NCBI GenBank assembly: GCA_964545575.1
Contig: CAZJFL010000001.1
Span: forward strand, 294,178 to 358,177
Reading direction: 5' to 3'
DNA length: 64,000 bases
DNA from: an uncultured Planctomycetales bacterium
Lineage (GTDB): Bacteria; Omnitrophota; Gorgyraeia; Gygaellales; Profunditerraquicolaceae
Shown here piece by piece: positions 1 through 51,246 of the stretch. The notes under the pieces were generated by a model. It did no database searches, was not told where the DNA came from, and saw nothing but the letters and a program-made list of their open reading frames with translations. The stretch's first letter is position 1. Every line of letters begins with the position of its first letter. A program made the translations under genes and the position numbers.

Positions 1-3000
1 ACCCCACGCCTAAGAAATCAAATAACCTCTTTAGCCGGTAATTCTGTTGCGTATCGCCGGGCATTACCTTGGTCAGGCGGATATTCCTCCAGTTGAATAA
101 GACGCTTAAGAGCGTGGCAACCGCTCCCATAATAATGAAAGCCCCGGCCAATTGCGGCACGCTGATTCCCAGGGCCTGAGTAATGAGCCGGTTAATATAC
201 TGTACCGCAGGAGAGAACTTGACGGCAAGAGACAACATCAATCCTCCTATGCTGCCCAGATAACTCAACATCAGCGGCAGCCAGCTGGCTACAAATCTTG
301 GCCAAACCGCCGCGGCCTTTTTGTTGCCCTTACCTTTTAACCAGCAGGATAAATCCGTGAGGCTCGTATTTTTGGAAAACGCAGGCGTAATGTAATATCC
401 TTGCGCAAAGAGGATTACTGCGCTCAATACTGCTATTAGCGCGTTGCTTAAAACCGGCAGATGCAGCCCGGAATGCGCCAAAATCCACAGCCCCCCGCCT
501 ACCGGCCCGACAAAGAATAAACCTATAATTATCCCGATTGCCAGAAGAGCGACGGCCGCTTTTCCCGCGGGCACTCTTGCTCTGGATACTTTTCCTTTGG
601 TTTCTTCTCTTTGCGGCAATTCTGTGCCGGTCATTGTGCTTATGGCGCTGATTACCGGCGCAGTGACTTTACTAAGATCCGCCACGGTGCTCTCCAAGGC
701 TAAGTCCATCCCTGCTAAATGGCTGGCCGTGGTCTCGTGCTTGAAAATCCCCTGCCAGCGAGAGGTATGCCGGGCATCATATTCTAATTCCCGCGCATAG
801 TCATGCAAATGGGTAAAGAAATTGCCGATCTGGGAATCGATTAATTGCAGGGCGGCGCAGCTCAATTCTTCTTTTTGTTTATCGGTAAGTTTATCTTTGA
901 CCTCTTGGGCGCGACCGCTAAAACATTCGTCTATCAAAACATCTATCCCCCCAAGGACAATATGCCGGCGCATCTTGATCAATCTGCCTAACCAGAATCT
1001 TCCTGTCTCTTCCTGAATCGGCCGCTGCAACCGGAAACTGCGCATATTTTCTTCTGTTATCTTTCTCTGCATAATCGCGATGATTCTTTCCGTAGTTTTT
1101 AAGTCGCTACTGCCGGAGCTTAAGATTTCCCTGGCCTCGTTGGTTAAAGAAGGATGATCGCGGAAGATGGTATCCTTAAAAGTATAAACGCCCCGCCAAT
1201 ACGCATCTTCATCGGGATTTCTTGCGCCTCTGGCTTTAAATTGCGCGCTCTCCAAAGAGCTGTCAGACAAATCGGCGTCAATGAGGTAAATTTCTTTTCT
1301 TTGAACTTTTTCATCAAGCTCAAGCAAAATATTCACTCCGCGGTTGCCTACCAGCGTCAAAATGGTAATTTTACCGCTCCTCCCTGCTGCCTCGATAATC
1401 TGCCTTATTTTTTTTGGATCATTGGAAATGCGCGCGTCAACTATACGCACATTATCTACGCCCAAAACTCCTGCCAAACAGTCTGCGTGGAGTGATGAAC
1501 CCGCCTTAATCACAAACGGCTGTTCCCCGGTTCTCTGGTCATAGAGCTCTCTGATGCGCTCTCCCTGCTGCTCCCAAAGCTTTTTCAGATTTTCCAGCTC
1601 TTCCAGCTCATCGCAGTCCGGCACAAACTCTATACCCAGGGTGTACGCCCGGCCTCTTGCCGAACGCTCCTTGTATCTTTTAATTTTAGCCTGGGGATAA
1701 ACCTCCCCTACTACCCCGTCTTCAAGCGTGCCGCTTAAACCGATAAAACCGGCGAAATGTTCGGATTGAAGATAGGTTAACAAAGGCATCTGGGATACCG
1801 GCCTGTCTTCGCCGCTAAAAGGCAGTTCTTCAGCAAACTCAACGAAGAATTGCAGGTCCTCCCACCGTTTTCCGTATTCAGATTCTCCGGAGAGCTTTCC
1901 GTGGATTACCACTTTATCGTCCTCAACTTCGTACTCAACGCCTCTTTCATAATGACGGAATACCTTTAAGGCAGTTTCTACCCAGTAGAGATATAACCAT
2001 TGCTCTGCCGCCGGAGCGGAGGTGCAGGCGGGTATTTGTGCGCGCACATAATCTTCTCCTGCCTTATTCAGAATAACTTCTTTGTTTTCATCTTTAAAAT
2101 ATGTCGCATTATCTTTGATAGCCATGGCTACCTCGGCAGCCTGCAGTTTTTTCTCGTCTAACTTTCCCTTCTCTTGTAACTGGGAAATGATATGCGGAGT
2201 AAATGCCTCTGCCACCAAGGTCCGGTCTGCCTCATCCGCCATAATTACCCATCTATGTTCGGATTGCGCCAGTTCCTTAGTATAGGACAGGAGGTCTAAT
2301 TTCTGATAATCAAAGTTAAAGGTGGAAATCTGGCCGTAAATTACGTCTGCTCTATGATAAATATCTTTACGCTCGGCCAACTCTTGCCATTTTCCGGCGT
2401 CATAGATGAAAGTCTGGCCATCTCTGGTGACATAGCCTACCCTTATGCCAAAGCGGCTCAATAACTCCGCTGCCCGCTTGCCTTGGTCATAAGCAAAATG
2501 GTCGTTACAGACCACGGCAAATACTTTCAGGTTCTGGCGTTTTACGACGAGATAAGCTAAACCGGGCAGGATAACCGTGCTCTTTGTTCCGGCAAAATCT
2601 TTGACCACGAAGAGTTGGGGTGAAACCAAATGCCTGGCGAAAGTTTCCAGGATAGCGGTTTTTGCGTCCGCGAATTTTTCCGCGCTAAATGGTATTCCCT
2701 CGGCGCTAACTTGTTCTCTAACAGTTTGCTCGAATGCCTTTGCATCCAATAACTTTTCTGCTTCGGGAGCTGCCCTCGTGGGCGCGGTCGCAAGTTGCGC
2801 CTTGGTCCTGAGGGCACGGATACCGGCGGCGATGTTTTTGCGCTGTGCGATGGCGATGGCGGCGATGGCGGCGATGCCCAATATAGGTAAGAGACTAACG
2901 GTGCCTACCGTTGTGCCGCCAGAGGCAAAAGCCAGGTCGACGGCCAAAGCCGCAATGAGCAATACCACAGCGCCTGCCCCGCGGCGGTGGTCAGTAGAAG

Positions 3001-6000
3001 GTTTTTGCTTTCCGTTTAATATTTCAAACTTTAATTTCTTAGCAGCATCTGACAGGCCTATCTCGAGTGCCTTCTGGGCATTAGTGCCTTTTACAAGAAT
3101 ACCAACGACTCCTTCTGCGCGGTATCCTGTGCGATCATCAAATATAGTTAAATATACCCCTTGGTTTTTACAAACACGGTTAAATATCTTCTGTAATAAC
3201 TTTACTTTTTTCTCTAACTTTTGCCCGCGTTCTCTAAATTTTATCTCTACATAAGCGCTATCCGGGGCTGCGTCTACCGCCGCGCTGTCGGCGCGGGTTC
3301 GCTGGCTGCGCTCTAAGGCCGCAGCCCTTTTTGCCTCAATGATTCTCCAAATCATAATTCCGGAGAGAATTAATGCAGCGATGCTCACTATAGGTAAGAG
3401 GCCGATGACAACCGTTGCGCCGGTGCTTGCCTGCGCCAGGCCAAAGGCGATAAGCAGGCCGGCAACCACTGCGCCTGCTCCGCGACGAGGAGTTAATTTA
3501 TTAATAAGGGCGCCGACGGGGGTCGTCCCGGAGGTATGGGCCGTCGGACAGCCCTCATTATTATTAATATATGCCCGGTCAGAATTATCGCTAGAGGCAT
3601 CTTGATACTCCTCAAGAGGTTCAATGATTATACTTACCTTCATCCCTTTTTCGCTGCCATACGCTACATCATCTTTTTCCACTTCCACCCGCGCTAGAGG
3701 ATATTGTTTCCTGAGTTCTCCTTCAAACTTTCCCATAAGGAACTTGTGGCAGGAATATTCTACCGTAATAATTATCTGGCCTTCACTGTAAGCGTAGTTT
3801 ATGGTGGTTATATCCGCCGCCTCTCTGTTGAATCCGGCCGGACCAATAATGAATTCGTCTATAAAAGAATCCCGGGCTTGATGAGAGAACCCGCATTGCG
3901 CCAGATGAAGAGGGATTCTCTTTAATGCTGGATAATAATCAGAGACATCCCCTAATGGCCGCGGGCCTTGATAGTGATCCGTATCTAAACCAATAAACCC
4001 TCTTCTATATTTATATTTATATTCTCCTTCTCCCCGGAATAATAATCCCTGCAAATTATTGACCTCATGCGGCTTGCCGCTGCCTTCGTGCAGGATAATC
4101 TCTACAAGATGATAACCGTGGTGGGACGGATTAATAAAGACGTATTTACCGCTCTGGTCTTTGCAGGCCACCAGCCTTCTTCCGCCGGTCTCTTCTTGGA
4201 ACATCTGGAATAACTTTCTTACTTGTTTATCCTTCACAATCACCTGATCTTCTATTTGCCGAGCAAGTTCAGTCAAGCCATGGCTTCGCGCAAACTTAGT
4301 CGCATAGGGCTTGTAGCGAAGATAAATCTGCTGCTCTCCCTTATTCTCGCTTAAATGCGGGAAGAGCTTATTAATCAAGTCATCTAATTTTTCTATCTCC
4401 TGCGCGGTAAGCCCGTCTCCGTCATCAGTCATGGCGCGGTCGTAATGTCTTGTAGCACCACCTATCATCTTGCGGTCAGTAACCATCTTACGCTGCTCTA
4501 TTAATCCCTTTAATCCATCTATAAATTTATCCGAGAAGCCCGTAGCGCTATCTTCAGCAAAATAATCAAGGATCGCCGCCTCTTCCAGCCCTACCCTCAC
4601 ACGGCCCTGTAACTCTTTATAAATCCTAATTATCTCCTCTTTAGACAGACGCCCTGCCTTAACTTTCTTTAAGAAATCTTTGATCTCTTTACTCCGGATG
4701 CAGAAATCTACTCCCACGAGGCTCCAATGGCAAACTTCATCGTATAAAGAAAAGCCCCTCACAACGGCTGTGATAATTTTCCTCATGACAAGAGGGATAT
4801 TTGCCTTAAAGAATTCAAGCTCTAACTCTCTTTTAATTCCTGCGTTATGTATTCTTCGGAAGATCCGCGTTTCCCTTGTCCGTTTTTGCTCATCTGCTCT
4901 GGCCAGTCCAGCTAATGCCCTCTTCTGCTTCCTTTGATATTCTCTCCGCTTGGCATCTTCTGCCGCCAGCGCAGCCGCGCCCACCACGCTTGCCGCCGCG
5001 TAGAGGCCGAGGCCGCCTAAACCTAATAAATTCTCCGGCGCCAGGAACCCTGCCTGCTTGGCCGCTGTGCCGCCGAGCATATAGTGGTCTAAGAAGTATG
5101 CCCCGCCGGCCAAAAGCGTCAGGCCGATACCGGCGATAGTTCTTCTGTTATTGCGTCCGGATTTTTTGGGTATATGCTGAAGCTGACGCGTCTTTCTGGG
5201 CTGTAATTTAACTTGTGGCCGCTCGACCACCCCAATTACTCTTCTAGGAGCTAATAGTTGCTGCACTTCTACCTTACCTTTAATATAGAAATATCCGGAG
5301 ATGCCGCAATCCACAAACCAGGCGTTGCGGACATTAAATTCCTTAATCATAAAATCCGCCATCTGCGTGGTGGTAGGGAAGCCGCCGAAAAGCTTACCGT
5401 AGGTGAGATTATCGGCATCAGTAGAGACTAAAACCAGGTTGCCGCGCTGATCCACGCCTACCAGGGATTTAGCACCTTCCCAATTTTTCTTAGCTACATT
5501 TTTACCGTCTTTTACTGCCTGCGCAAATACCCTTAAATTTACGGTATCTCCCTGCCGGGTGGTAAACTGCGCCGGGTAGCCGCATTGTTCGTTAATATCG
5601 CCACTAAAAGGAGCTTCGGACATCGCTACCACTACTGGCGCGCTATCGCCTAAGTTATAAGCATGTTGTAGGCCGGCAGCGGCAAAATTATATACCCCCG
5701 GTTTATATCGACTTAAATCGATAGTCGCGGTATGAAGCAACAGCTCGTTTAATGCGGGATAAACAGCATAATTTATCCCCTCACATATCTCTTGCTTCTT
5801 TATCGTGTCGTGCGGTAATTTAAATATCGCCCCGAGCAGCGCGGATATAAACGCTGCCGCCATGGCAAAATTGATGGCCGCGCGCAGGCTCATCCGCATG
5901 CTTGTGTATTTATAATGAGAAGTGCCTTTACCTTTAGTAGCCTCCGCTCTCCAAAAACCTATAAAGGCGAAGGCGTTAGCTACGATCCCTGCAACTAAGA

Positions 6001-9000
6001 TATATATTTTTGCGTTGGTGGTTAAGATATATGCTCCGGAACCACCCGCGATAAGGTACAGCAAAAACGCGCCGGCAAAATCGCCTGCTAGCGTGATAAT
6101 TGCGATGGTGCCGATAATACCTTGGAGTATACTGGTGGAAGAAGTGACCAGATGCTGCCTGATTAACCATCTGATTCCCAGGAATAAAAAGAGGGCTGAG
6201 ACAAGCAGCAGTCCTGTTATCAACAACGGCTTTATCAATACCATTGGCCCGCTTAATTCTCTAATCATCTGCGGCGGTGCGCTAGCGCGAACAAAAGCAA
6301 AGATAACTAATATTCCTAAGAATAATTTTGACAGGATTCTCGTGAATAATGTGACGGGTAAAATTACTTCTTGCGGATTCACTTCTTTATTATCAATTGG
6401 CGCCAGAGCCGGCGGAGCCCGGGGAGCCTGAGTAACCGCTATTATAGATAAAACCAGTGCCGTCAAAATCATGAATCCGCTGAAGGCTGTCTGCGGCGGG
6501 ATATGCAGCATGCGGGATGCCGCCGGCACGCCGAATAACCCGGCCGCACCGATGCCTAAAACAACTATTAATAATTCCATTAAGGCAAATCTCTTGTCGC
6601 CGGTATTAACTGGGACCGTAGCGGCCTGTTCTCCTTGAATATCTGCTAGCATCTTACGCCCATCCAAAACTTCTACGCCAAAATGCTGCTTTTCGCAAGT
6701 AATGATAACCTCGCAATGCGGTTCTTGTCCGAGCCTATGCAGTATTCTCACTAAATCTCTAAAGGTATCCGTATCGGTGTCGCACACCAATCCTAACTTC
6801 CGCTCTAACTCAATTCTCTGCTCCTCTGTCAGGTTATCGCTAAATTGTAATTCCAGCTCAAAATGCACCCGGGCGAGTATCTGTCTTTCCTGTAATAATC
6901 TCTTCATTTCAGGCAAGTCTAAATAAACCATGCTTCCCACCTGCTGTTTAGTCTGGGAGTCGATCATTACCGTCTTATTATTAAAAGGAACTAAGCCGCA
7001 TTCACCGCTATCGTGCCTTGCCGTAATATAACAACCATATTCAAGCACGCCCCTAAGGCCCTCTTCTTGCCACTGCGCTCTCTGTTTTGCGTCAATAAAA
7101 CCTTCATTTTCTAACAGGGTAGGTAAATCTATACATTTGCCTTTATCGTTCAAAAGGGTAATACGATGCACCCGGGATGCTCCCCATGCTGTATGTATAT
7201 GTCCTCTATAAATAATATTGAGATGCCTTACCGCAGCGCCTCCTATAATATCTACTATTTCTATGGCCTCTCTGCGTAAATCAATCGTCAATATTTTCTC
7301 CGGTTCTAATTCAGTACCTTCCTGCCTTACTAATTCGAAAGAGATGCTCTGGTTAAATTCGGCCCGCCCTTTTAAAGCCATCATAACGCTATTGAAAATT
7401 AAACTTGTATACCTTTCTGTATCAAATCCTCCTGCGATGGAAGCAGAATACCTGCGCCCTAAAACCCACATGGCGCTTCTAATATCTCCCTTAAGCTTCA
7501 TGTTCCGGGCGTATTTTATTCTGCTGGCAAGTTCATAGTCTACTGCAATATCGGTTCTTTCTGCCACCGCCACCGCGCCCAAGGCCACAGGCGCCAAGCC
7601 AAGCAGGAAAGCCCCATTATTGCCTGCAGGAGCTTTGCCTAATAAAGTAGCGACTAACAAGGCATCGCCGATAATCGCTGCCCAGAAAAGTATCGAGCCT
7701 ATCGGTGAATCCAGGAATGCCATTATTTTATTAAATAAAGCCTTGGCCGAGCCATCCAAGATGCCGTCCGTGCCGCAAAAACCTAAGCTTACCATCTTCT
7801 TCCGTACCGCCGCCGTCGCGCCAACGGCGCCAGTAAATTTTTCTTCCAGTGGCAACACAATATCAGCGGTATCGACTCTGGCGGCGGCCGTCTCTAGCAA
7901 GCCAGAGGTGGAAATGGTCACCGCTACATCCTTCCACCAAGAAGGCTCCGGCGATGGTTTCCAGTCCTCGTATAACGTAGTATTGCCAAAAAGCAACAGA
8001 TGCCTACCCGTCGGAGAAAATGCAAAGATCAGCGGAACTTCATTTTTTTCTTTCTTTACTACCACAAGATTGTTCAGACCCATAAAGATATTGTGCCCTT
8101 TGAGTTGCGCAGAAAGCAGAAATACCTCAAGGAATTCCTTAATTCCATTCCTGGATGAGCAAGGATCGATGCCTAGAACCATTGGGATAGAACTCTGCCA
8201 ATTGATCCGCGCCTCACCGTCTGCAGCCAAAACACGATGTACCTCTTCCAAGGCACGTAACTGGTCGATTAGATACTCAAATGTCCGTACCGACATAGCA
8301 AAATGGAACTTACCAGTCCAATCATCAGGCATATCTTCCGCTAAAGACTTTTTCAAAGTAATGACGCCTTCCTCTTTAAAGGCCTCCCATAATCCTGCAC
8401 CTAATTCATCTACTCCTATATTTTCATCAAAATCGAGGCTTATTCCATAAAATTGGTATTTTTGTTTCAGCAACTGCGCTAACCTGCGGGTCTTTTGGGA
8501 ATCCTGAAGAACCTCTTTAAATATATCTGGTCTACTTCTATTTTTCAGGTCTTTGGTCAGCTCGGGCCATTCTCCTTTTGCAAGTAAATTCTGCGCAATA
8601 TACGCAGCAAGGTAAAAAAGCGCATATCCTTTGCCTGCCCCTATATCCAAAATCCGCATTGGCTCCTCTTCCCGCAACGCTCCGGCTGTAATCAAATCCT
8701 TTCTCCTCTTCATCAAAAGCGTATCACAATAAAGCCTGTATCCTTCTTTATCAATACCAAGTATGTAAGAATCATAATATTCATTATTAACACTTGCCTG
8801 AGATCTAAAGGGAAGCCTCGCCCCTCCCCCCAGTACCGTTCTAATATCCCTAACATCTCCTTGGTATGCAGCGACGTAATTATCCGCTGCAAAGCTCTGC
8901 AAAGCCCCCCTCGTTGAATCTCGGTCGGTATTCTTTTGACCACTATACCATCTCGCCACTACTCTATTTAGATTGCCCGCGGCCCTAAAAGGAATAACGG

Positions 9001-15000: not shown

Positions 15001-18000
15001 AACCTTTGCGCGTTTGTCTGTAACCACGACCTGCGATTGCGCCAATCGCAGCCGCGCGCCACACGCCCGGGCTAAGCGTTCTTCTAGCCATTCCTAATTC
15101 TTTAATAAATTGCGCTGTCCCTATATAATCAACCGACTTCATTCCCCAGTTAAACGCGGGCTTCAAGCCAGCCGGCAAAGTACCCAACGCCCTGCTGATT
15201 CCCACGTTGCCTACTACCGAGCCAAACTCAGCCGCCGGCAAGCCTTCAGTGATGCCTTTCGGCGCAGCCTGCGCCGCCTGCTGTTGCTGCCGTCTATTAT
15301 TAAGCCATCCTTTTACCGCAGCCGCTGCTGTATCCCATAATTTCTGTAGTTCGTTTTTTGGTGCCCCTACCAATGCTTCCACCGGGTCAAACGAGCGCAG
15401 CGTAGAAGTGGAAGAGGTACCGGGATCCTCTAATCCCTCTAAGTCCAAATCGGATAAATCGCCGAAATCGCCTGAATCAACGCCGGCAAAATTACGCCCT
15501 GCCTGCGGCTGAGGTTGCGGCGCCGGCTGGCTGGCCTTATTAAGGTAAGGAGCGAGCAAGGCTAATCCTCCGGCAAGAATAAAGGTAGCGGTTAGTTCAG
15601 GAGGCAAATGCGGGATAGTGTGCGTAGCTTTAGCTACTGCCTGCATGCCGGTATTACCTAAGCCTGCGGCAAATAACCAATAGGGCACGCCCTTGATATC
15701 TTTAAATATCGTGCCGCCATCTAAGGGTTTAAGCGGAAGTAGGTTAAATACGGCCATGCCTAAGTTAACCGTAGTAAATAAATTCAGGGCGGTCTGTAGA
15801 TTCAAGCTGCCTTGCGCATTTACCCCGATATGCCCGCCCAAAGCCAAACCCGCGGCCATCAAGCCTAAGCTCACTAACGGGCCGGCCGCATAGACCAGCC
15901 TCTGCTTCCAATTACCGCGGGAATTTAAGCTATCCAGATCCTGTATGTTTGCTTTCCCTCCCAGCACACCCAGCTCTACCCCAGAAGTCTTGCGGCCAAA
16001 AATTCTGGCTACCAGGCCATGCCCGGCTAATTCGTGGCCTAAAACCGAAGCACCGATAATACCCGCGGATGCTAATCCGCCAATGAGACTGGTAGAAAGA
16101 TTATGATGGCCTAAGAATAAGCCAGCGGCAGCTAATACCGGTATAGCCAACGAAGTCCATTTAATAGTAAGATGATTGATCAAAGGCAAAGGTATGCTGA
16201 TTCCGGATTTATTGATGAATTTCGGCCGCGGCGCGGGTGCCTGGGCAGCTGCTTCCGGCTTAGCCGGATGGCCTTCCTGCCACTTTTTATCCCACTCTGC
16301 CTGCATGGACGCAAAGGCATCCACTGTGCCGGCTGCAGGCGTAAACTCTGCCTCGGCATCAAAAACTAACGGCTCTTCTGCCGTCGCCGCTGCCGGCTTC
16401 GGCGACAAGCGCTTGACTGTCGGTTTGCCGCTTAAAATTATCTCTCCTGTTTCTGCCTTGCTTGAAAATTCATCCCGCTTCACCTCGCAATATTTGCCGT
16501 TATCCATCACCCCGACATACTCTACCAGCGTGCCATCCGGAGCGACCTTAAGGATGCCTGTCTTGACCACTGCTACCGAGTGCGCCGTGCCATCGTGGCG
16601 GATAAAGGCAACAAAAGGAGCGGCTTCCTCCATTCTCTGCTTATCTACTTCATTTGCCTGCCTTACCTCCTGATTACGGGCGGATAAGGTCTCCTGATAG
16701 TCAGCCAATTCTTTCGCTAAATCCTTTAATTGCTTCTGGTCGTAGGCAATCACTCTATTCTTGAGCGAAGGAATCAGTTTCGCCAAAAGGTTATCCCGCC
16801 GGGTTGCCAATTGCCGGTTGTAACTGATATCACTTTCTAGGGCTTCTTTATACTGCTCCAGTTGCGTGAGTAAAACGCGCACCTCATCTTCCTGGAGACT
16901 CAAGAGGACCGAAATTAAAATACCGTCTAACCCTTTATAATAATTCAGCCACCTTCTATTCTGGGAGCGCACGCGCGGTATATCATTATCCAGCTGCCGG
17001 CTCAAATATCCCTGCAACACCCTGATTAAATACCCTAAATAAACATCGTCGACTTCTGCGGGAGGAATTGCCGTTTTGAATGCCCGCGGCATACCCTTGA
17101 AACGCGCAAGCACTTTCTGGGCGCTCTCTGTCTTTGGTGTGCCCGCAAGCTCGGCTAACTCTTGAATAGCCTCAATCGTGGCAGTTAATTCTTTTTCCCT
17201 TGCCTCTGCGTCGCTGGCAACGATAGCATCCTTTAAGCTAGCCGGCGGTTCTTTAACCGCAGCAGGCGCCGACTTCTTTAATGCCGCCAGGTTAGCCGCA
17301 TTTAAGCGCACTCCGTGCCGGCGGGCGATTTTTACGATATCGGAGACATACAACCCGATCTGATTGTCACGGCCCGCATTAATAACTATCCTTTTTCTGC
17401 CGTTATTGCTGTCACTGACCAAAATATCCAGAATATCGCGGGTAATCTCCTGAACAGCATCCGGACCCAATTTTCCCCTTTCCCGCAATAAAATTCCCAA
17501 GATCTGCGTGGCGCAGATGCTTAAGGCCCTGCCGCCGCCGTTAGAGAGGGTATTAAATAACTGCTCTAATTTATCAGGGGCCATCTTCAATAATTCACCT
17601 TGCCAGCGGCTTAAGCCGTTGCGACCAAGATAATCTTTTCTTCTCTGGATTACCTGCTTCCTTGCCTCAATCTTTTCCCTCTGTTTTCTTTCTTTGATAT
17701 TCTTTATCAGTACCTTCGCCCACTCAAACAGCCCCTTCTTAAACGAAGGTCTCTCCACGGCAGGGGCGCTGCGGTCGCCTTCCTTAACCACCTCATGATA
17801 TCGCCTCAGGTCTTCTGCTACCCTTTGCGCTTCCCGCTGTGAGGCATCAAACGTCTGGATGGTTATCTTATTCACCATCAGTTTATTCTGCTTCAAGGAG
17901 ATAAGCCGCTCTCCCAGTTCTTTTGTTGTAAGCTTCTCGTCAAAGACAATCTGTAACAACCCCAGCATATCTTTTTCCTCAACCCGGCCTTCTTCCTGCG

Positions 18001-33000: not shown

Positions 33001-36000
33001 CGCGGGAAAGAATAGCTACACCATTGGAAGAAACGTTTTTTGAACTGCCTTTATCATAGTTTCCCCGGCTGCCGCTAGCAGGACTACCGGCGTTAAGCTC
33101 AATCTGCGGATGCCTTTCGCCGATCAGAGCGCCTTTCCAAAGCGGCACGATTTCTTCTATGCCACCGCTAAGTTTATTAGTTACTTTCGATTCCGGCAAA
33201 GTTGCAGCACTTCCAGCGACTACTCTGCCGGTTATGGGATCCCGAACTACGCCGGCATAATCTCCCTTATTAATATCACCCTTACCTTTATAACGGTAGA
33301 ATAATACATCGTAGCGCGGATCCAGCGTGTTCACCGCCATAGGATTATCACTGCTGCCAAATTCCATCTTCGCTACGTCTTTTCCTAAAAATGTGTTGCC
33401 GTCGTAATAAGTATTCAAGATGCTGACGTCTCCGTAAATAGATGGCCGGGTGAGGCTGGCGTCAGAAAAAGGATGTTCCGCAGAAGCTCCGCCGATGCGC
33501 ATGCCGCCGGCAATGCTCTGCTGCATATCCAGGTCGCCATTATTATATACATCCTCGCCGAACTTGACCTGGGTGTATCTGGTGGTGCGGAAATTAGAAA
33601 CTACATATTGCTTGACCTGATAATCTTTGGTTTGCGGGAAAAGGTCCTGCGTGCCGGGTGAAACGGTGGTAAAATCATAGCCGCCGGGGATTTCTAGTTT
33701 GGAACCTATACCTAAATTCTCATAAGGACGTAAGCCTTTGCCTGATAAAACTAAAGAAACGCTTCCGGTAACCAGATGATTTCCCGCGGCGCTATGGTCT
33801 ATTACTCGCATCCGGCTGTTTCTTCCTTCCCAGGCTGACCCCCGCACATTAATTGCTTTCTGAGGATTCTGGGTATCCTCTCCTCCGTAAAATTGCGTTT
33901 CTCCGCTCTGGGCATTATTGGTGCTTGCGGCAAAACCCGAAGCCTCCATTGCCTGGGCATATTCTTCGGGATTGGTGCTGATATATCTGGTTTCGTGGGC
34001 AATGCCGTCTTTGGTGATAGTGCCGACTAACTCCAAGGCATATTTTGCTTTGCCAAAAGAATTATTACTGCCGCCCTCGGTGACTGCGCCCAGCCTTAAG
34101 TCGGCGTAGCCAGGGGATTTCTCCCAAACGCCAGCTATTTTTTCAAAGGTTACGAATTTATTATCCAAGTCTGAGCCGATGCCTACCAGCCCGATTTTAT
34201 TCTGAGCGATTAATTTTCTTACTGCGCCGACAGTCTCAGCGCCTTTTATGCCCCAAGCCTCTGAGGAATTAATCAACGGGTTTCCCAACTTATCGGTAAA
34301 CGGCTTTCCTGCCTCATCGGTGATTGTTTTCTCCAGCCTTCTCCAGACCATCGGATTGCTGCGGTCAAAATGTAATACGGTGGTAATTACTTTGGCTAAT
34401 TGAGAATCTCCCAGCACATCTACTGCCTGAATGGGAGCATATTCTACGGCTAAATTTTTGCTGTATGACTCAGGATGCAAATTGCCTTTGTAGGACACAT
34501 TAGCTTTTTGCTGCGGGTCTAAAGAATACATCCAGAAGCCGGTCAAGGGATCCGGCGCTCCCTGCTGGTTATAGCTTAAATTGCTGCCATAGGTAATATC
34601 TACGTGATTATCAACGACCGCTACCTGGCCTTTTAAAATTCCTCTGCGAGGCGCGCCGTCAACCAGCCAGCCGGAATTCTTATTCGCTAAATCTCTGCTC
34701 AAGGCGCCCACATCCGCCACTGTGCCGCCTACTTTCACTGTCCTTCCGTCGGCGCTGACCGCTCCTAATTTAGTTAGGCCAAAACTCTGGGCAGGATTAT
34801 TAAAACTAGGCGTAACCTCTGCCTCATTACGGACGGTCTTGCCAAAATCATACCTTACTTCCCCGAAAGCCCAGCCGTTAAAATGAATGCCGCCGGACTG
34901 GTCAATCATTAAACCTGCTTGTTGAAATTCGGGTTGCGCTTTCGGCGCTTCTAAGGGAAGAGAAACTTTTCCAGAAGAGGTTTGTTTCATCTCTACGCCG
35001 GCGAAAACCAAACCTTCGGGCTGAGCCTTTAATTTGTTAGTATAATCTTTGACTAATTGGGCGGCTGCTCCCCAATCTGCGGGCCCTGAGCCTGAGGAAG
35101 AAGCCTGCAGTAAATACCCGGCTACTTGTTCTCCTGAAACAATATAGCCGGTTTCTCTCAATGTCCGGTCTAAATCCTTTACTGCCTGTCTGTATTGTGT
35201 TGGGTCTTGGGAAGCATTAACCGGCCTAACCTCACTGCCGCTACCCACAACCAAGGTTTTATAAGTCCGCCCGGGTTTATCTATATCTCTTGCCTGCTCC
35301 ATCCCGGGTAAACTTGTGGTTTCCAATGGATTATCTAAATCTATTGGCCTGCCGGGCTCTAGCGCGTCATTAAGACGCTGAGAGTCAACGGTATATACCT
35401 TCCTAGTCAGGCCAGGATGCATTTTGCCTGCATTGGCTTGCTCTTTAAATTTGCTTAACTCTTTGTCATTCGTTAATCTGCCCTCTTTATTTAAATCAAA
35501 AGTCTGTGCATCTTTTGGCCGCGTAGATAACCGAGCAATTTCGCTCAGCTTGCCATTTTCATCAAAACTAAAATGCTTGCCGGTAAATATTATCCCGTCA
35601 ATATTCCCATCTCCCACATAGCGCCGGCCAGCCTCCATGCTTTTTCCTTCTGCCAGCTGGACAATAAAATCTTCTTCTATTCTTGCCCGGGTAAATCTGC
35701 CATTAGCAAGCCCCATCTCTCCGTACATTGATAAGCTAGGCCGCAGGCTTATTTTACCTTGGGAATCTTGGACTAAACCCAAGCCTGCGGGGTTATAATT
35801 GAAAGACACCTGCGAAATAGCCGTGGCATCGGGGCTGGCTGTTTTTTCCTCTAATGCGCCCCAGGTCTTAGGCCCGACTATGCCGTCCGGCTTAAGTCCA
35901 TTTGCGCTCTGAAAATCCGTAATCGCTTTCTTAGTCAGCGAACCTTTTATCCCGTCAGGCAGATAGGGATAAAAACCTGCTTTATTTAAGCTAGCTTGAA

Positions 36001-39000
36001 TTTGTCTAGCGGTAAGATTATCTGCTGAATATGCAGGCTCCGTTCCCCTTGTTCCGGCGGTGTTGCTAAAGCTACCCCACAAAATAACATCTTCCGGTTT
36101 ACCGGTAGGATTAAACTTTATGTTCCCGACAATGTAATCTATATCCCGGGCAGGCATTTCCTGTGTAGCAGCCAAAGCCAGGTAAGGCAGAAGGTCGCGA
36201 CCGACTTTCTTTTGTAAGGCATAAATTTTATTCTCCGGCTGCTTTTCCAACCCTTTTAAGGCATCGGCAAAAATTTTCCCTGTTCCCGAAATAGTCCTCT
36301 GAATGCCGGTCGTGCTACTTAGGCCATCTACATCGCTATACTGTTTCTCGATGATCTCTTGCGGGCTGATGCCAAAGGCCGCCGGAGTATTGTCAAAAGC
36401 TACGGTTACATATCCCGTAGCCGAGGAGCCGCTTTTTACTCCCTCAAGCACATCCAGAGTATTCATCTTTTTGTACTCTGTCTTTCTAATCTTATCGTCT
36501 TGGATACTGAGCATGCTGGGCTTCTCGGAATAACCCGGAGTAATATTGCGCCAGTTCGTCCCTAACGTCTCCTCTAATGCTAAATCTACTGCTTCGCCAT
36601 AACCGGTTCTTGACTCGGTCTTTTGTCCTACTAAGACATTTTTATTAAAGGTCTGGGAAGTCTGTATTGTTTTCATGTAAGTCCACCCAGTATTTCCGCG
36701 CAGAGAAGCATCCCTGCCTTTTACCGGCACTGCCCCGCCTTCGTTATACCAGTAAAGCCGCTTTCTATCGGAAGCCTTGATGCTCCCGGGTAGACCTTTA
36801 CCCTTCTCTGCTTCTTGATCTAAAATGTCCTTTCCGCTCCGCAAAGAGGTAGACCCGAAAATATAGATTTCTGAAGGGGTCTCCCGAGCCGCTACCGCTA
36901 CGTCACGGCTCATTGTTGCTTCAGCCGTAGAGCGTTGCCTGGTGCCTGTCTCTATTTCTTCTAAGGTAGTGGTCTGAGAAACCTTGAGGCGGTCCGGAAC
37001 GCTGACTTCCCGAACTATTACTTGTGTCTCGCCGGAATTTCCTTTCAGCGTCTCTGTCTTTTTGCCAAAGCTTACTTTAGAATCGGAAACGTCGGCTACC
37101 TTAATAGACGGCTTAATTGGCGCGCCGGGCAAAGAAACAACTTGCGGCTTAAGCTTAATTTCATTGGATCTGGTAGTGTGATCCTGCAAGGCGGCTTCAG
37201 CTAAAACAAGGGCGACATCTATATTTGGCCCTGTTGCGTCCGACATAACCATCTGCCTGATATCCTCCCACTGTTGTGCGGAAAATGCCGGGGAAACTCC
37301 AGCGTGCTTGGCGATACCAAACCCTGCTGCTTCGTTTACCGCCAGAGAAATAATTCCTGTAGCGAGGAAGAAGTCCTTGCTTTTACCCGCCTTCTTTGCA
37401 ATAACGCTGCTGATAAACTCCGTGGCAGAGTCTTTTGCAGTTATTTCTCCGCCGACCACGCTTACGATAGGATCGGGGCCGCTGATGCCTGGCAATTTAA
37501 AATCCATATTTCTGCCGGATATGGCGAATACCCTGTGGCCGTTTATCGCCGCCATTGCCAATAGCTTTGTGCCCCCCAGCGGCGCTGCATCTTTAAAAAT
37601 AAGCTTGTAACTATCATAAGAATATACGGTCGGGTTGCTTCCTCTGACTAAAGCCGCATAAATAAAATATGGACTCTCCAGCAATTTATTTTTATCAAGC
37701 TTCCACATACTCATGCTCTTGCGTCCGCTGGTTATTCCCTCGGCTATCTCCGGCATCCAAGTCGCTATGTAATGCTGATCGGCATCAAAATAGCGCTTAA
37801 ACTGGCCATCGCCCCAACCAAATCTTCCTCTCTCTACCGCCTCCCTGATCAACGGCAGGTCCGGCTGCCAGCCAGGCAGGTTCCATTGCACAAATTGTGC
37901 CGCTACGGGATTATTCTGAACTTTTTTATGCAAGATTCCGGTAGGATTTTTACCTATCGTCACCAGATAGAGCGCATGCTTTTTGGTGACTCCGGAAACA
38001 TCTATGGTAAAGGTATCCTTTGCGTCTTCATCAGATAGGTCAGCTTGCAACACTCCCATAGGAAGTTTGTCGCTAAGCTGGTCATTAAGCTTTTTCATGT
38101 CGAGCGGCTCAAATAACTCGCCTATTAGTTCCTCAGTTTTATCTTTATCCTCGGAAACAAGCACTATTGTCTTACTGTCTTCCCCGAGCTTTATGCGCTT
38201 GTTTGGATTTGATTTTTGGAGTTCAACTAACACCTTGATCTTTTGCACTTCGGAAGAACCTGTCAAATCAGGAGACTTCAAAATCTCATCTATCTTTGCG
38301 ATGTTTATTGTATCTTTTATCTTTTGGTAGCCGGTCACCGGGTTATGATTATCAAATATATTCCAGACAGTCCTCGCCAGCCTCCATAAATCAGAAGCGG
38401 CGGTGTAAGTAAACTCGCTTGCGTTCTGCGCCGCGGCTGAATGGAGAGTGGCTGCGCCGTATTCAATCATCGCATACTTCGGAAAAAGACTCTCCAAGTT
38501 TCCGTCCTTTACAAAATCTCTCCAGGCAGTCTGATAATCGCTATACTTTTCGGCGCGCTTTCTTGATTCGGAATCATGAAGATCATAGTCATAAGGTTTA
38601 AGGTAAAGCGGGTCTTTGTCTTTGTCAAAGGGCAGGTAACCCATCGCCCGCATCATCCGGTCGGCATTAGCTTGAAAATTGTCTATCCCCGCCATTTCAT
38701 TGACCTTGTTGATATACATATTTAGCGTCCAGCCTGCCATGCCTTCGGTATAAGCAGGAGATGTCCTACCTAAAGTGCCGTAATTGACAATGACTTTCTC
38801 CACAAAATTATCTTTGAAGTTATTGAGAATATTACCCCAATTCCCATGCCAGCCAGTCTGGTAGAGGACATTAACCAGAGCCGATCCAGAGTAGGCGATA
38901 AGCGCCATATCACTGCGTGTCAGGCCCCAGTCATTGCGGTATACCCCGTCCTCGCATCTTTTATATGTCCCGGCGAATTTGGTCAAGGTGGAATCGAGTA

Positions 39001-40859
39001 ACCACGTGCTTCCGGCACCGATTGCGCTATCCACTAATAGCGGCACTACCTTAACCGGCTGGCCGGCAGAGATCGCGCCCCCGACCCCACCGATAAAGGA
39101 ACCGGCAAACTCTCCCAAGCTCCGGGAGAAACTGTTACGGTTCGTCCATTCTTCGCGGTCTTCTTCGCTTAAATCCATCCATGTCGGCCGGCCATTTACG
39201 CTCTTATACTTAGGAAGCGCAGACTTTCTGTTCAAAAAATTTTCATAATCCTTATAATCTATACCCAAGCCGGCTATTTTCCCCAGAGATGAAGATACAA
39301 ACTGTACTTCTTTAATTGGGGCGGCGAGCCCGCGCCAAAAATCAGAGGAATTCCCTTTAGGCACAATCCCTACGAGTGCGCCGTCCTTCTTCCCCCAATA
39401 CCTGGTAAGCCCTGCTGAAGAAATAAAGCCGGAGGTTAAGCCATACGATAAAAAATCCGCGGTAAAGTTAGCTGTCTCAAGGGCAAGTTCAGGATTCTTT
39501 TTATAGAAAGCAGAGTCCTTTATTGACAGGTAAGCTATATATCTGGCTCCTGCTTTAAGTGCGCCCATTCCTAACCCTACCTGTAAACCCCGCGTAAAGG
39601 ACGATTGAGCGTTCCAAACGGCATCTTTAATGTGCATAAATTGCTTTGGCTCTATTTTGGTTGTGACGCCGTAAGAAAAAGCTGTAGTTGCCAGTGTGCT
39701 GATGGCTTGGACGAGCCCCGGATTCATTCCTGTTTTGGATAACCCATAAGTTGCTATCGTGCCTAATTGGCCGGTAAACTGCGCAACCGCTAAATCAGTG
39801 ATTCCTCCGCTGCAAATACCGGGTATAGCAGTTAACACCGTCATCCCTAAGTTGATTGCCGTTGCCCTCAAGTCTGGCTGTTGGAAAAGCGGGCTTAAAT
39901 CCGGGTACTTGCCTCTGTATCTCCTTGCCCCTAAAATAAGTTTGGCTTCACTATCAGCGATGGCGGTTAAGCCGACCGCCTCTTTTTTCTCGCTTAAAAT
40001 ATATCCGGAAAATCCTTCAAGGAACTTCTCGCTGGGCAGGAATTCTTCTTTATGCTCATCAATAAAATAAACCTTATCTCCAGAAATGCGGGCAACTAAG
40101 ACATAGTGATCGCCTTTTAAGTGGGCGATAAAAGGGACTGTCCCCGACAAGTCTATTAGTGTGTTATTCTTAGGGGACTGTCCCTGATTGAAGTCTATTT
40201 TTGCCGGGTAGAGTTTGTGGCCAAAGAATGCTGAAGCTTGAGATAAGGCAAATAATGAGTTTTTAATCACTTCCGGGTTACCTTCAGGCTTGACTACCCC
40301 GTTTAAAATATCCACGGTTAAGGCTAAAACCGCGATATCCTGCTCGGCTACCTGCGCGCCGGCATAAGTTAAATAATCATATAGCGCTTTTGTGCCGCAG
40401 GGCCTGCCTTTTAACCATTCGTAAATCTCATCTATTCGCTGCTTGCTGATGTTTAAGGGCTTTTCTAATTTTAAGGTGAGTTCCGGAGATAACCTGATAG
40501 CATTGACGGACTTACCGGAAATATCTTTAAGGATGTTCCTCACCGCCAGCGGAATGTCCAAACTGCGGGTATCTTTAAGATAGGCCGGGGCAAAAGTATT
40601 GAGTGTACCAACCGCAGGCCTCTGCCAGAGCACGCGCCAGTCATATTCTACTGCTTGAGCTACCTGCTGAGGAATAAAAATAGCCACTACTACAAAGGCT
40701 ACTACCCTGATCCAGGCCTTAAAGTTGGAGTGAAAATGCGGCTTCTCGTTCTTTCCCGTAAAAGAACTTACAGCAGAATCAGAAACCTCTACGGCTTCTC
40801 CGATCCTGCTTCCGCGGGATATTTCTTCTAATTTTTCTGTACGGGTTGCTTTTTCCATT
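1..40859 (-). CDS. Giant multidomain, multi-TM protein. The 3' end is outside the window. There are 13,589 or more codons in one frame from 40768 to 2, plus a 46-codon N-terminal ORF (40859..40722) in the adjacent frame, implying a frameshift or indel near 40720-40745.
   Basis: All plus-strand ORFs in 1-40.8 kb are short low-complexity antisense shadows. No complete minus-strand ORF of 60 aa or more is listed, so the coding frame has no stop before the window edge. I checked frame phase (codon top coordinate mod 3 = 1) at 40195, 35992, 16222, 8659, 2611 and 4, and all agree. ATG 40859 follows the upstream gene stop (40862) but hits TAA at 40719-40721. The long frame opens after a TAA at 40769-40771, and the two frames read together give a sensible N-terminus followed by a TM helix. 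The translated protein has recognisable motifs of several enzyme families (listed as separate features). Confidence 0.8.
1300..2640 (-). other. SecA-like DEAD-type motor (NBD) module of the giant protein
   Basis: Translation KDFAGTKSTVILPGLAYLVVKRQNLKVFAVVCNDHFAYDQGKRAAE...DVIYGQISTFNFDYQKLDLL...RWVIMADEADRTLVAEAFTPHIISQ...ILTLVGNRGVNILL lines up with four SecA blocks. These are SecA [77 protein letters not shown] and TNMAGRGTDI. I verified the DEAD block on the DNA (2180-2260). Confidence 0.65.
5280..5790 (-). other. Phosphodiester-glycosidase (NAGPA/DUF2233)-like module of the giant protein
   Basis: Translation ...AKSLVGVDQRGNLVLVSTDADNLTYGKLFGGFPTTTQMADFMIKEFNVRNAWFVDCGISGYFYIKGK resembles the family C-terminal block (...aIGid.dGrLllvvvDG...G.tl.ElA.lm..lGa.dAlNLDGGGSs). 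It matches at motif level only. Confidence 0.4.
7630..7690. repeat. Dispersed internal repeat, copy 1 (its partner is at 9743-9803)
   Basis: ggagctttgcctaataaagtagcgactaacaaggcatcgccgataatcgctgcccaga nearly matches 9743-9803 (ggagctttacctaataaagtagcgactaacaaggcaccgccgataatcgctgcccaga). Both encode WAAIIG.ALLVATLLGKAP in TM-rich parts of the giant protein, which suggests a duplicated membrane module. Confidence 0.8.
8190..8660 (-). other. Class I SAM-dependent methyltransferase-like module of the giant protein
   Basis: Motif I reads EEPMRILDIGAGKGYALFY (hh[DE]hGxGxG). Downstream lies FHFAMSVRTFEYLIDQLRALEEVHRVLAADGEARINW (post-I/II/III-like). The frame checks at 8659. Confidence 0.55.
9743..9803. 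repeat. Dispersed internal repeat, copy 2 (its partner is at 7630-7690)
   Basis: See the 7630-7690 feature. Confidence 0.8.
15690..16100 (-). other. Site-2-protease / peptidase M50-like membrane module of the giant protein, with an atypical HExxxH spacing
   Basis: Translation ...GIIGASVLGHELAGHGLVARIFGRKTSGVELGVLGG...LVYAAGPLVSLGLMAAGLAL...NLFTTVNLGMAVFNLLPLKPLDGGTIF. Compare RseP/SpoIVFB-type HEFGHfwvARrcG and the NLLPipvLDGG motif. I read the DNA codon by codon: cac gaa tta gcc ggg cat gives HELAGH, one residue longer than the canonical HExxH. Confidence 0.6.
19229..19756. repeat. Tandem duplication of about 264 bp (2 copies, roughly 90% identical) inside the giant ORF, encoding a duplicated coiled-coil segment
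   Basis: gccaaaatcttctgatta...ttcttccaccggcctgattaacgcctgcgcact...gcgggct(g/a)cttccagct...gcaaagcttccttctgct recurs with a period of about 264 bp (copy starts near 19231 and 19495). Both copies are in frame and translate to ...QSEILLAQARKQKEALL..LEAARREKQDILD.E..VLAD..SAQALIRPVEEKI.RIE..LKE.NQKILA.E. Confidence 0.8.
35850..35995 (-). other. Peptidoglycan-binding (PG_binding_1-like) module of the giant protein
   Basis: Translation LTARQIQASLNKAGFYPYLPDGIKGSLTKKAITDFQSANGLKPDGIVGPKTWGAL fits the PG_binding_1 consensus (L...GY.....DG.FG..T..A...FQ...GL..DG.vGp.Tw..L). Confidence 0.65.
40090..40420 (-). other. Peptidase C39-like (bacteriocin-processing / papain-like) domain of the giant protein
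   Basis: Translation reads ...RPCGTKALYDYLTYAG...(about 90 aa)...GDHYVLVARISGDKVYFIDEHKE. This matches the C39 Cys motif (CG.A.L..YYG-like) and the His-box (HYVV..I.gdkvyI.DP-like) in the right order and spacing. A TM helix lies just before it. Confidence 0.5.
40134..40184. repeat. Palindrome pair gggactgtcccc (40134-40145) and ggggactgtccc (40173-40184), in frame inside the giant ORF 5' region
   Basis: The element gggactgtccccgacaRgtct.ttattag.gt.tt.ttaggggactgtccctg is nearly identical at 42755-42806. Here it encodes ...QGQSPKNNTLIDLSGTVPF.... Confidence 0.85.
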
Positions 40860-40861
40860 TT

Positions 40862-41353
40862 TTATCTGTTTAAGTGCCCTATTTTGCCAATCTGTTTAAT
40901 CTCAATAACCGTACTCTTCATCGACTTATTTGCAGAAGTACGTTGTAAAGCGCTATTCGCGCGGTTTGAAGTAACTTTAGAAAACGCCCTTTCTCTATGC
41001 TTGCTCATACCCAGGTTAGTCTTTAAGGGGGCCTTTACTTCTTTTAAAAACGATCTTTGATTTATCTTTTTGATTGTAGGAACGCCGATTTTTTTATTCA
41101 ATTTTGGTATTTTGGCCCCAGCCGGAGGCTTAGCAGGCCTAATAATATTATACGGCCTCTCAAGTGGGTTAAAATCGCCGGGCCTTCTACTTGGCCTTTG
41201 GTGATCGCGCCATTGGTAACCGGCGCCTCCTATGCCTTTGACAATTGTAAATGCCGCCTTACCATTATTATTATTCATTCTAGCTCTTTCTGTCGGCCCC
41301 ATTATTCCAAAAACTCCAATCGCTGCTATCGCTATTATTACAAATATGCCCAT
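40862..41353 (-). CDS. Hypothetical basic protein with an N-terminal TM helix (163 aa). Its stop is 3 nt from the giant-gene ATG.
   Basis: It is an ORF-track ORF with the N-terminus MGIFVIIAIAAIGVFGIMG. It lies in an operon between the 393-aa gene and the giant gene and overlaps the upstream gene by 16 nt. Confidence 0.55.
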   Translation of the reverse strand: MGIFVIIAIAAIGVFGIMGPTERARMNNNNGKAAFTIVKGIGGAGYQWRDHQRPSRRPGDFNPLERPYNIIRPAKPPAGAKIPKLNKKIGVPTIKKINQRSFLKEVKAPLKTNLGMSKHRERAFSKVTSNRANSALQRTSANKSMKSTVIEIKQIGKIGHLNR

Positions 41354-42496: not shown

Positions 42497-42628
42497 TTAA
42501 AAGAAAACCGGATTATCAAATACTCGATTTCGCATCGGTATTCGGTAACCCGGCTGTCTTTAAAAATCCCTTTTAAGACCCGTGGCTTTGTGCCCCCACC
42601 TCACGGTGGGTTTACCCTTTCGTCCCGT
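42497..42628 (-). promoter_or_regulatory. c-di-GMP-I (GEMM)-like riboswitch A in the 5' leader of the giant-gene operon. The aptamer is about 42538-42628. The terminator-like platform is about 42497-42550.
   Basis: The minus-strand transcript reads ACGAAAGGGUAAACC-CACC GUGA GGUG-GGGGCACAAAGCCACGGG-UCUUAAAAGGGAUUUUUAAAGAC-AGCCGGGUUACCGAAUACC. Compare the Vibrio Vc2 GEMM GGGCAAACC / GNRA hairpin / GGGACGCAAAGCC / P2 / GCGGGGUUACCGA. The conserved 3' strand CCGGGUUA can instead pair with UAAUCCGG, which is followed by UUUUCUUUU (a putative terminator). Confidence 0.6.
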
Positions 42629-45451: not shown

Positions 45452-45631
45452 TTAGGGATGCGTTGTATAGGGATCGAATTGCCTACCGTGGCCAAAGGTA
45501 TCTCCCACTTCCCGCATCTTGCCTGAAATAGCCCGCTTCAGGTATATCGCCATCCCAATTAATGCTACCACAATTATGAGGATTAGGAAAGCGTATTCTA
45601 TTGAAATAAACGCCTTCTTGGCATTTTTCAT
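45452..45631 (-). CDS. flp: Flp-family pilin paralogue (59 aa, not in the ORF track). Its ATG at 45631 overlaps the upstream stop as ATGA.
   Basis: Translation MKNAKKAFISIEYAFLILIIVVALIGMAIYLKRAISGKMREVGDTFGHGRQFDPYTTHP. It shares the xxIEY + hydrophobic helix + YLKR..G motif with the tandem flp array. Confidence 0.65.
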   Translation of the reverse strand: MKNAKKAFISIEYAFLILIIVVALIGMAIYLKRAISGKMREVGDTFGHGRQFDPYTTHP

Positions 45632-48999: not shown

Positions 49000-49024
49000 C
49001 TGCTTTTTAGTTCTCCTGCGCTAA

Positions 49025-51198: not shown

Positions 51199-51246
51199 TT
51201 TTGCGCTATTTTGTCTATACCTATATCGCTTAGTTGCCTTGTGACC

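Follow-up and report, generated by a model that had tools for sequence, protein, structure and literature searches.

Genes of 40 kb to more than 100 kb raise a general question, namely how transcripts of such length are gated; at the locus described here, this decision would apparently fall within the first 130 nucleotides. The stretch analysed (hereafter the window) comprises 64,000 nucleotides of contig CAZJFL010000001.1 (positions 294,178 to 358,177; assembly GCA_964545575.1), deposited as an uncultured Planctomycetales bacterium. It holds on its minus strand an open reading frame (ORF) of at least 13,619 codons, here called the giant gene, which lies behind a candidate riboswitch for cyclic dimeric guanosine monophosphate (c-di-GMP). 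A giant ORF is ordinary for the Omnitrophota, the phylum in which we place the window, and what deserves attention is the near-universal linkage of this riboswitch to one large clade of giant genes. The class of giant genes is already known from these tiny bacteria, which live attached to hosts, and the c-di-GMP switch in front of this gene and some 85 relatives is apparently unreported: the word riboswitch is absent from West-Roberts 2023, Seymour 2023 and Nielsen & Lui 2026, and a literature search on riboswitch with Omnitrophota, Omnitrophica or Velamenicoccus returned one unrelated paper only, from a collection beyond which further papers are possible. No paper on the sample accessions was found. 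Taken as a whole, the locus is in our judgement quite probably an Omnitrophota giant envelope gene within a c-di-GMP-controlled attachment module.

The giant reading frame

In a six-frame scan of the window, the minus strand is free of stops from 40861 to 2, that is, for 13,620 codons. The first ATG lies at 40858-40856, with the TAA of the preceding ORF (40864-40862) 3 nt ahead, and translation from it gives 13,619 residues without a stop; the giant ORF (2..40858, minus strand) then leaves the window, so that its C-terminus lies past the window edge. The first-pass annotation, made from the letters alone, had described a single uninterrupted frame here. Translation of the minus strand bears this out, the codon phase is the one it gave (40858 mod 3 = 1), and the frame had indeed been missing from the list of ORFs because frames running off the source go unlisted. 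Its view that such an ORF is extremely rare in bacteria holds for bacteria generally and fails for the Omnitrophota, where such ORFs are common, with one or more proteins that reach 10,000 residues encoded on 24-28% of Omnitrophota contigs (Nielsen & Lui 2026, bioRxiv 10.64898/2026.06.07.730766).

The runner-up among the open stretches of the window has 1,949 codons (a plus-strand gene, described below, that likewise exits the window), and the longest open run in the remaining four frames across 1-40.8 kb has 303. Given the regional base composition, the probability of meeting no stop over 13,620 codons is about 1e-343. The coding signal is present throughout: G at codon position 1 amounts to 0.34-0.38 in every 1,000-codon block, the other five frames contain 18-97 stops per block, and each third of the ORF is correlated in codon usage with the genes next to it (r 0.71-0.77). 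The giant frame is a genuine coding sequence.

We found no internal repeats at the protein level, and just two short ones in the DNA. A 66-nt repeat (7621-7686 and 9736-9801, 94% identical, 2,115 nt apart and in frame) corresponds to a pair of transmembrane helices of nearly the same sequence, AAIIWAAIIGGALLVATLL and ILFWAAIIGDALLVATLLG, and a 215-nt pair lies within 19222-19700 (87% identical, 264 nt apart). With only such short repeats in the gene, a repeat-driven mis-join is therefore unlikely. A tandem-repeat scaffold architecture was rejected on the same observations.

Affiliation and gene family

The window has no marker gene, and its placement comes through TadC, encoded upstream of the giant gene. 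Every named one among 454 TadC homologues is from Candidatus Omnitrophota/Omnitrophica (47-65% identity), and the approximately 55 best loci in a genome scan with the TadC alignment are metagenome-assembled or single-amplified genomes (MAGs or SAGs) of Omnitrophota, a subset of them deposited as "uncultured Planctomycetales/Planctomycetia"; the closest is SAG AM-311-A19, at 65%. These relatives support an Omnitrophota placement, which the first-pass annotation had put forward as a guess.

The N-terminal module of the giant protein (membrane anchor, PEQVAQAVEYDWRVLW motif and C39 protease domain) matches 272 representative clusters, among which long fragments cut off at contig ends, of up to 7,821 residues, are frequent. 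A huge open frame on the same strand as tadC, 0.8-2.5 kb downstream of it, occurs at about 20 Omnitrophota genome loci and at none of 24 non-Omnitrophota loci; in metagenomes, tadC lies upstream of the giant-gene N-terminus in 49 of 62 assessable loci. The C39 domain, the transmembrane regions, the SecA-like motor and the upstream Tad genes match the published description of a class of genes whose Archaeovorin type protein, from Velamenicoccus archaeovorus LiM, has 39,678 residues (West-Roberts 2023, bioRxiv 10.1101/2023.11.21.568195; Seymour 2023, PMC10066038). On this match we assign the giant gene to that class, and read the region as the first 40.9 kb of one of the known Omnitrophota giant envelope-protein genes beside Tad genes.

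At four metagenome loci (L137, L101, L143 and L157), the riboswitch and the N-terminal module are the same but the gene is only 781-2,085 codons long; these are non-giant or split members of the family, or sequencing errors.

The riboswitch and its linkage to giant genes

The element in front of the giant gene is an aptamer of the c-di-GMP-I class (riboswitch 1; 42540..42625, minus strand), which Rfam family RF03167 matches with 65.9 bits against a gathering threshold of 59. Our own covariance models, built from Rfam hits and run over all fetched loci, give it 92 and 85 bits. An aptamer lies between tadC and the giant ORF at all 12 genome loci that share 37-62% identity with the window in the N-terminal module, and each of the seven genome matches re-tested with Rfam was confirmed. 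An N-terminal alignment search of metagenomes found it upstream of the giant-gene N-terminus in 74 of 80 loci; since the upstream sequence is shorter than 300 nt at three of the six misses, the count becomes 74 of 77 assessable loci. The median distance from the aptamer to the next ORF start is 169 nt, and 79 of 86 such ORFs run off their contig. At distant giant-gene loci (22-31% identical), the aptamer is absent from 12 of 13, with a weak match in the thirteenth. An alternative riboswitch class in this distant subfamily was also considered and set aside, as Rfam found no RNA family at all in seven of these loci.

In an alignment of 30 aptamers, 98.9% of the cells are paired, against 27-44% in slid controls, and compensatory changes occur at 12 of the 18 pairs, figures to be read with the structure in a favoured position because the alignment was fitted to the model. 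The window aptamer contains the conserved core nucleotides of the class (GG[C/U]AAAC ... GC-A-AAGCC ... [G/A]CCGAA). It scores best with the GGC variant model of Rfam, yet has the canonical A in GC(A)AAGCC, and all 28 scorable aptamers have A at this GC(A)AAG position. We take this A to be the ligand-stacking adenine, and the GGC variant to be its replacement by G. As the canonical A is present in every scorable aptamer, c-di-GMP is likely to be the ligand, even where the GGC-variant model scores best.

At a few Omnitrophota tad loci (L038 6822-6946, L020 7589-7723, L052 19887-19982 and L056 10992-11074), the aptamer lies downstream of tadC and is followed by an ORF unlike the N-terminal module of the window (1,489 aa or more in L038). 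At this post-tadC position, the riboswitch would thus serve other large genes too.

Expression platform and direction of the switch

The minus-strand unit begins with a promoter-like TTGACA-17-TATACT (42679-42651, 25 nt upstream of the aptamer; a consensus match only) and continues with the aptamer (42625-42540), an ORF of 355 aa, an ORF of 163 aa and the giant gene. The 355-aa ORF (41338..42405), first behind the riboswitch, encodes a protein with a signal peptide and overlaps the next ORF by 16 nt; the 163-aa ORF (40862..41353), whose basic product has an N-terminal hydrophobic helix, stops 3 nt before the giant ATG. These junctions agree with the earlier description of the giant gene as the last gene of a riboswitch-headed unit. 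Neither small protein belongs to a Pfam or NCBIfam family, and the 355-aa protein has only three relatives, two of which (P0003 and P0004, 72% and 64% identity) bear a near-identical upstream aptamer.

When the window leader is folded, a terminator hairpin (CCGGGUUACCGAAUACCGAU...AUCGAGUAUUUGAUAAUCCGG, then UUUUCUUUU; 42499..42553, minus strand) takes the 3' strand of the aptamer as its 5' arm. This overlapping terminator is conserved in 42 aligned loci, with compensatory pairs (UA 33 / CG 7, GC 40 / AU 2) and the U-run, and a cruder scan recovered an aptamer-overlapping terminator in 55 of 86 loci. Because the two structures share this strand, ligand binding should block termination; from their mutual exclusion we infer an ON switch.

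In most of 73 leaders there is, besides, a conserved stretch 20-60 nt past the terminator U-run and before the start codon, which in relatives reads (G)CTTAnTAAGnAGTTTTAnAAA and in the window (about 42460-42495, minus strand) reads AAGGGATTAAAAAGAAGTTTTCAAAAG. Its role may be that of a further regulatory element or of a signal for translation.

Domains and topology of the giant protein

Hydropathy places an N-terminal membrane anchor at residues 44-62 (40673..40729; all features of this section are on the minus strand), where the alignment of homologues shows a conserved F-K-x-W-I-R-x-V-A motif. The charges flanking this first helix suggest a cytoplasmic N-terminus, with which both the C39 and the peptidoglycan-binding domain would come to lie outside the cytoplasm. 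The C39-type cysteine protease domain (residues ~154-292; 39983..40399; Pfam PF03412, E 5.8e-7) was missed by Pfam on 4,700-residue chunks and detected with pieces of 340-1,200 residues. A Peptidase_C39 match is also present in 22 of 24 homologues, in which, as regards the catalytic residues, Cys154 is invariant and His251 nearly invariant. The core of its AlphaFold (AF2) model has a predicted local distance difference test (pLDDT) score above 90; the best Foldseek matches of the model are PCAT/ComA double-glycine proteases (template modelling score, TM, 0.68), and its fold matches 6mpz, 3b79 and 3k8u. With this papain-like fold in the model, and with Cys and His both retained, the domain qualifies as a Peptidase C39.

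About 8,000 non-repetitive and mostly unannotated residues follow, among them a PG_binding_1 domain (residues 1618-1669; 35852..36007; Pfam E 1.2e-16) with endolysin and L,D-transpeptidase matches in the PDB. An L,D-transpeptidase domain behind it, hinted at by PDB 4lpq, was ruled out, there being no cysteine between residues 636 and 4023. The AlphaFold model of residues 301-900 (from a 15-sequence alignment) consists of long helices throughout, with a pLDDT of 69.

Further along lies a membrane domain resembling M50 (site-2) proteases (residues 8267-8388; 15695..16060; Pfam E 2.3e-11, PDB 3b4r). Its Pfam score is 43.9 against a cut-off of 27.2, its first motif is HELAGH (HExxxH, not the canonical HExxH) and its second, NLLPLKPLDG, is intact. 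It is followed by a methyltransferase-like domain dependent on S-adenosylmethionine (residues 10722-10882; 8213..8695; Methyltransf_11, 23.0 bits, cut-off 21.2), with ILDIGAGKG as motif I, and by a segment resembling the phosphodiester glycosidase NAGPA (residues 11780-11867; 5258..5521; 27.2 bits, cut-off 25).

The last recognisable module is a SecA-like motor (residues ~12777-13213; 1220..2530; SecA_DEAD E 1.2e-14, SecA_PP_bind E 7.4e-7), formed by part of the first nucleotide-binding domain (NBD1, with DEAD at 12875), the preprotein cross-linking domain and NBD2. SecA chains in the PDB match it with E-values down to 9e-14, the aligned part being SecA residues ~160-570. The Walker A motif is degenerate (DFAGTKST), GxxxxGK[ST] occurring nowhere in the giant protein, and GLSGTL and GNRGVNI replace GMTGTA and AGRGTDI. 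By these motifs the domain is SecA-like and no bona fide SecA. The SecA scaffold/wing has no match in the approximately 400 residues after the motor, where the protein is cut by the window edge.

Six Pfam families are represented in all, very few for such a length. A Pfam rescan of the whole protein in 1,200-residue pieces added weak sub-threshold matches (SecA P-loop/NBD2 and methyltransferase models) and no further domain type, and a PDB sequence search of the whole protein returned the PG-binding, M50 and SecA domains only. On two points of architecture the first-pass annotation needs correction: in place of multi-transmembrane segments alternating along the protein, the hydrophobic segments are concentrated in the last third (about 30 of 34 Kyte-Doolittle peaks, the only measure used, fall within residues 9,200-13,600), and the proposed coiled coils found no support in a crude heptad scan, which gave a single segment, not above shuffled sequence.

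Neighbouring genes and further regulatory elements

The giant gene adjoins a Tad locus, as had been noted at first sight, being directly downstream, on the same strand, of tadC (43692-44576, 294 aa) and tadB (44576-45424, 282 aa), both matching Pfam T2SSF and supported by JGI names in their clusters, and of TadE/G-like and pilin-like genes. Besides ORFs of 480, 142, 154 and 59 aa, the rest of the Tad-like operon (45452..53630, minus strand) holds the TadE/G-like gene (46089-48566, minus strand, 825 aa) and several small pilin-like genes in a row, of which one has a weak class III signal-peptide match. No Tad ATPase (CpaF/TadA) or secretin (RcpA) was recognised among the window proteins. Between tadC and the riboswitch (43009-43601, minus strand), there is a pair formed by a ParE/RelE-type toxin (100 aa; its cluster has 30 members across many samples) and a Phd/YefM-type antitoxin (97 aa). 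The minus-strand gene run is headed by a 773-aa ORF (53883-56204) with low complexity and weak TolA-like matches only; downstream of it comes the promoter-like site that precedes the pilin genes. Divergent from the tad operon, and between the two riboswitch units, lies an AAA_14/DUF4143 ATPase gene (56420-57559, plus strand) with a weak NERD match.

The second riboswitch unit is on the plus strand. It consists of a promoter-like TTGACA-17-TATACT (57710-57738), a c-di-GMP-I aptamer (riboswitch 2; 57777-57869; Rfam RF01051, 70 bits against a gathering threshold of 35), a strong terminator (57890-57919) that does not overlap the aptamer, an ORF of 87 aa (57939-58202) and, from an ATG at 58180, a second giant ORF that has a signal peptide and a two-partner secretion (TPS), FhaB-like domain. 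This TPS ORF runs for 1,940 aa or more in the window and for 3,226 aa or more in an independent contig (L001 11359-21140); no TpsB partner is visible.

A third, aptamer-like element (53622-53746, minus strand) lies between a promoter-like site (53799-53771), which it closely follows, and the small pilin genes. With our own model it scores 21.7 bits, below the Rfam thresholds, and it aligns with strong c-di-GMP-I aptamers that head tad/pilin operons in L091, L094, L097, L114, L122 and others. It is probably a decayed copy of the aptamer, because the GGCAA and GCGCAAAG core is lost.

The window contains 10 copies of a palindromic 11-mer, GGGAC(A/T)GTCCC, where 0.02 would be expected, and every copy belongs to a pair with a spacing of 16-70 nt (40134/40174, 42755/42794, 53834/53873, 55942/55958 and 57595/57664). 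Each of the three promoter-like sites has a pair upstream; one more falls within the 773-aa ORF, and another lies in frame in the giant ORF, its two copies being translated as GQSP and GTVP in a variable C39-domain loop. Such pairs recur at equivalent places in 25 related loci, in L018 inside the variable loop of an aptamer. The 11-mer may be either an operator bound by a common regulator or a mobile palindromic element, small and tolerated when inserted in frame (cf. Rickettsia palindromic elements).

Proposed working of the locus

Switches stand before the giant gene, before the TPS gene and, in relatives, before the pilin/tad operon; therefore the locus most likely forms a c-di-GMP-controlled attachment module. 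At low c-di-GMP, the terminator would form and transcription would stop before committing to a transcript of more than 41 kb, while at high c-di-GMP the bound aptamer would keep the shared strand, no terminator would form and RNA polymerase would enter the giant gene. The Tad pili and the adhesin would then contact a host or prey cell, and the target envelope would be bound and modified by the giant protein, held in the inner membrane by its anchor and exposing its first ~8,000 residues beyond the cytoplasm. A wider claim, towards which we lean only slightly, is that one c-di-GMP ON riboswitch is the conserved master gate of the whole clade, that the genes behind it are the longest riboswitch-controlled cistrons known, and that together with the Tad and TPS switches it makes up an RNA-based c-di-GMP regulon by which contact with a host or prey is coupled to deployment of the giant protein.

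Published observations provide the setting for this reading. Seymour 2023 (PMC10066038), citing Kizina 2022, reports peptides of the giant ORF to be raised three-fold when V. archaeovorus cells are attached. Giant genes have PilZ genes on their downstream side, and some of them contain GGDEF domains (West-Roberts 2023); solute-binding proteins and glycosyl hydrolases also follow Archaeovorin-type genes, as a class criterion. In the same work, the internal SecA-like motor is proposed to export the protein's own segments, and C39 and M50 to cut the protein.

Several points weigh against the attachment module as just described. Ligand binding, its specificity (the GGC-variant model being the best for the window aptamer) and the direction of the switch are all read from the sequence, and the topology of the protein from hydropathy and charge. 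About 95% of the giant protein has no Pfam match, and the model of residues 301-900 has no significant match in the PDB, with chance-level likeness to polytopic transporters. The SecA-like domain (no canonical Walker A) and the M50-like domain (HExxxH) may be inactive, and the attack on a host or prey is a function taken from the literature. In the window itself, two small ORFs separate riboswitch 1 from the giant gene, and a terminator-like hairpin (41462-41442, minus strand) lies inside the first of them, so that read-through into the giant gene is putative there.

The last two points also feed a different account, in which riboswitch 1 governs the 355-aa and 163-aa genes only, or is an OFF switch, and the giant gene depends on signals of its own. 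We find this improbable. About 80 relatives have the aptamer directly before the giant gene, with no gene between, and in the window the genes overlap or are 3 nt apart; from 42651 to 40858 (minus strand) no promoter-like site is listed save two 9-of-12 matches, at 41296 and 41101. Against the doubt that the direction comes from structure alone stands the terminator: the aptamer lends it its own 3' strand as 5' arm, and this arm covaries with the opposite one, as expected of an ON switch. That the frame itself might be an artefact, a chimeric join of unrelated fragments that happened to stay in phase, is hardly credible, given the chance of an open frame of this length, the uniform coding statistics and codon usage, and the lack of repeats able to drive a mis-join. 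Over window 30862-51353, the interval compared, there is 100% identity with contigs assembled independently from further samples (ENA ERZ27248920 and ERZ27248937; Logan SRR8437217 and SRR8437218). Three independent assemblies are identical over the first 10 kb of the gene and stay open for about 4,900 codons; gene calls on independent contigs reach the contig ends without a stop, at 4,848 and 4,903 residues. What speaks for an artefact is that this comparison does not reach window 1-30861, and that scans of genome and metagenome contigs with the last 900 residues matched nothing (for the last 1,200 residues, an ordinary SecA was all that a homology search found); even so, the order of the domains, C39 first and SecA-like late, agrees with published giant proteins.

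Two further accounts concern the protein rather than its gate. The translated frame might be a polyprotein, in effect a fused operon, cut into many envelope proteins by its own C39 and M50 domains or by other proteases. This possibility, which we regard as the less likely case, draws on a C39 domain with intact Cys and His at the extreme N-terminus throughout the family, on a second, membrane-embedded protease-like domain, on unrelated enzyme modules placed in series without repeats, and on the processing proposed by West-Roberts 2023; the M50 motif, on the other hand, is non-canonical, and published proteomics was unable to settle the matter. A polyprotein can be compatible with the attachment module. 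Somewhat more doubtful is that the giant protein is the bacterium's own coat or envelope scaffold instead of a tool for attacking host or prey walls. The name Velamenicoccus ("coated coccus"), the membrane anchor with its many hydrophobic segments and a peptidoglycan-binding domain that could target the cell's own wall all fit a coat, as do the intact peptidoglycan synthesis reported for the phylum (Nielsen & Lui 2026) and the coat proposal cited in Seymour 2023 (PMC10066038). Co-regulation with adhesion genes through c-di-GMP riboswitches, the glycosidase-like and protease-like modules, and the higher abundance reported for attached cells speak against a coat, though not decisively.

Comparison with known systems

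Archaeovorin shares with the giant protein its Omnitrophota origin, an N-terminal C39 domain by a signal anchor, many transmembrane segments, divergent SecA_DEAD and preprotein-binding regions, methyltransferase, glycosidase-like and peptidase modules, and Tad or type II secretion system (T2SS)-like genes with small class III signal-peptide genes directly upstream; it differs in glycosyltransferase, NUDIX and GGDEF domains, which were not found in the visible 13,619 residues. At 40.9 kb and at least 13,619 residues, the gene exceeds the size limits of Seymour (>20 kb) and of Nielsen & Lui (at least 10,000 residues); West-Roberts requires a gene >90 kb, of which 40.9 kb are visible here, the 3' end lying outside the window. 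The Peptidase_C39 and SecA_DEAD clusters of Nielsen & Lui 2026 (from a catalogue of 916 proteins of at least 10,000 residues) have in common with it the size, the membrane anchor, a "multi-enzyme" architecture without a dominant repeat, and flanking secretion/pilus genes, and differ from it in that its Pfam families are so few for its length.

The near-universal occurrence of a c-di-GMP riboswitch in one large clade would be the first concrete regulatory handle on giant genes, and one that allows testing in vitro without cultivation. Such a link would explain the PilZ genes and GGDEF domains that accompany giant genes, and it fits the rise of the giant protein reported for attached cells.

Riboswitches of the c-di-GMP-I (GEMM-I) class precede adhesin and pilus genes in Vibrio and Clostridioides. 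With these, the present system shares the aptamer class (RF01051/RF03167, clan CL00126), the transcription-terminator platform and the putative control of attachment genes by c-di-GMP; it differs from them in a cistron of at least 41 kb and in a linkage that is near-universal within one clade of giant genes. We know of no riboswitch-controlled gene anywhere near 41 kb. The LapA giant adhesins of Pseudomonas are repetitive proteins exported by a type I system, and c-di-GMP controls them post-translationally, through LapD/LapG. LapA and the giant protein have in common a very large surface protein, a deployment that depends (here, by prediction) on c-di-GMP, and a dedicated cysteine protease; in contrast to LapA, the giant protein would be controlled at transcription, and it is non-repetitive and polytopic, with the protease domain built in.

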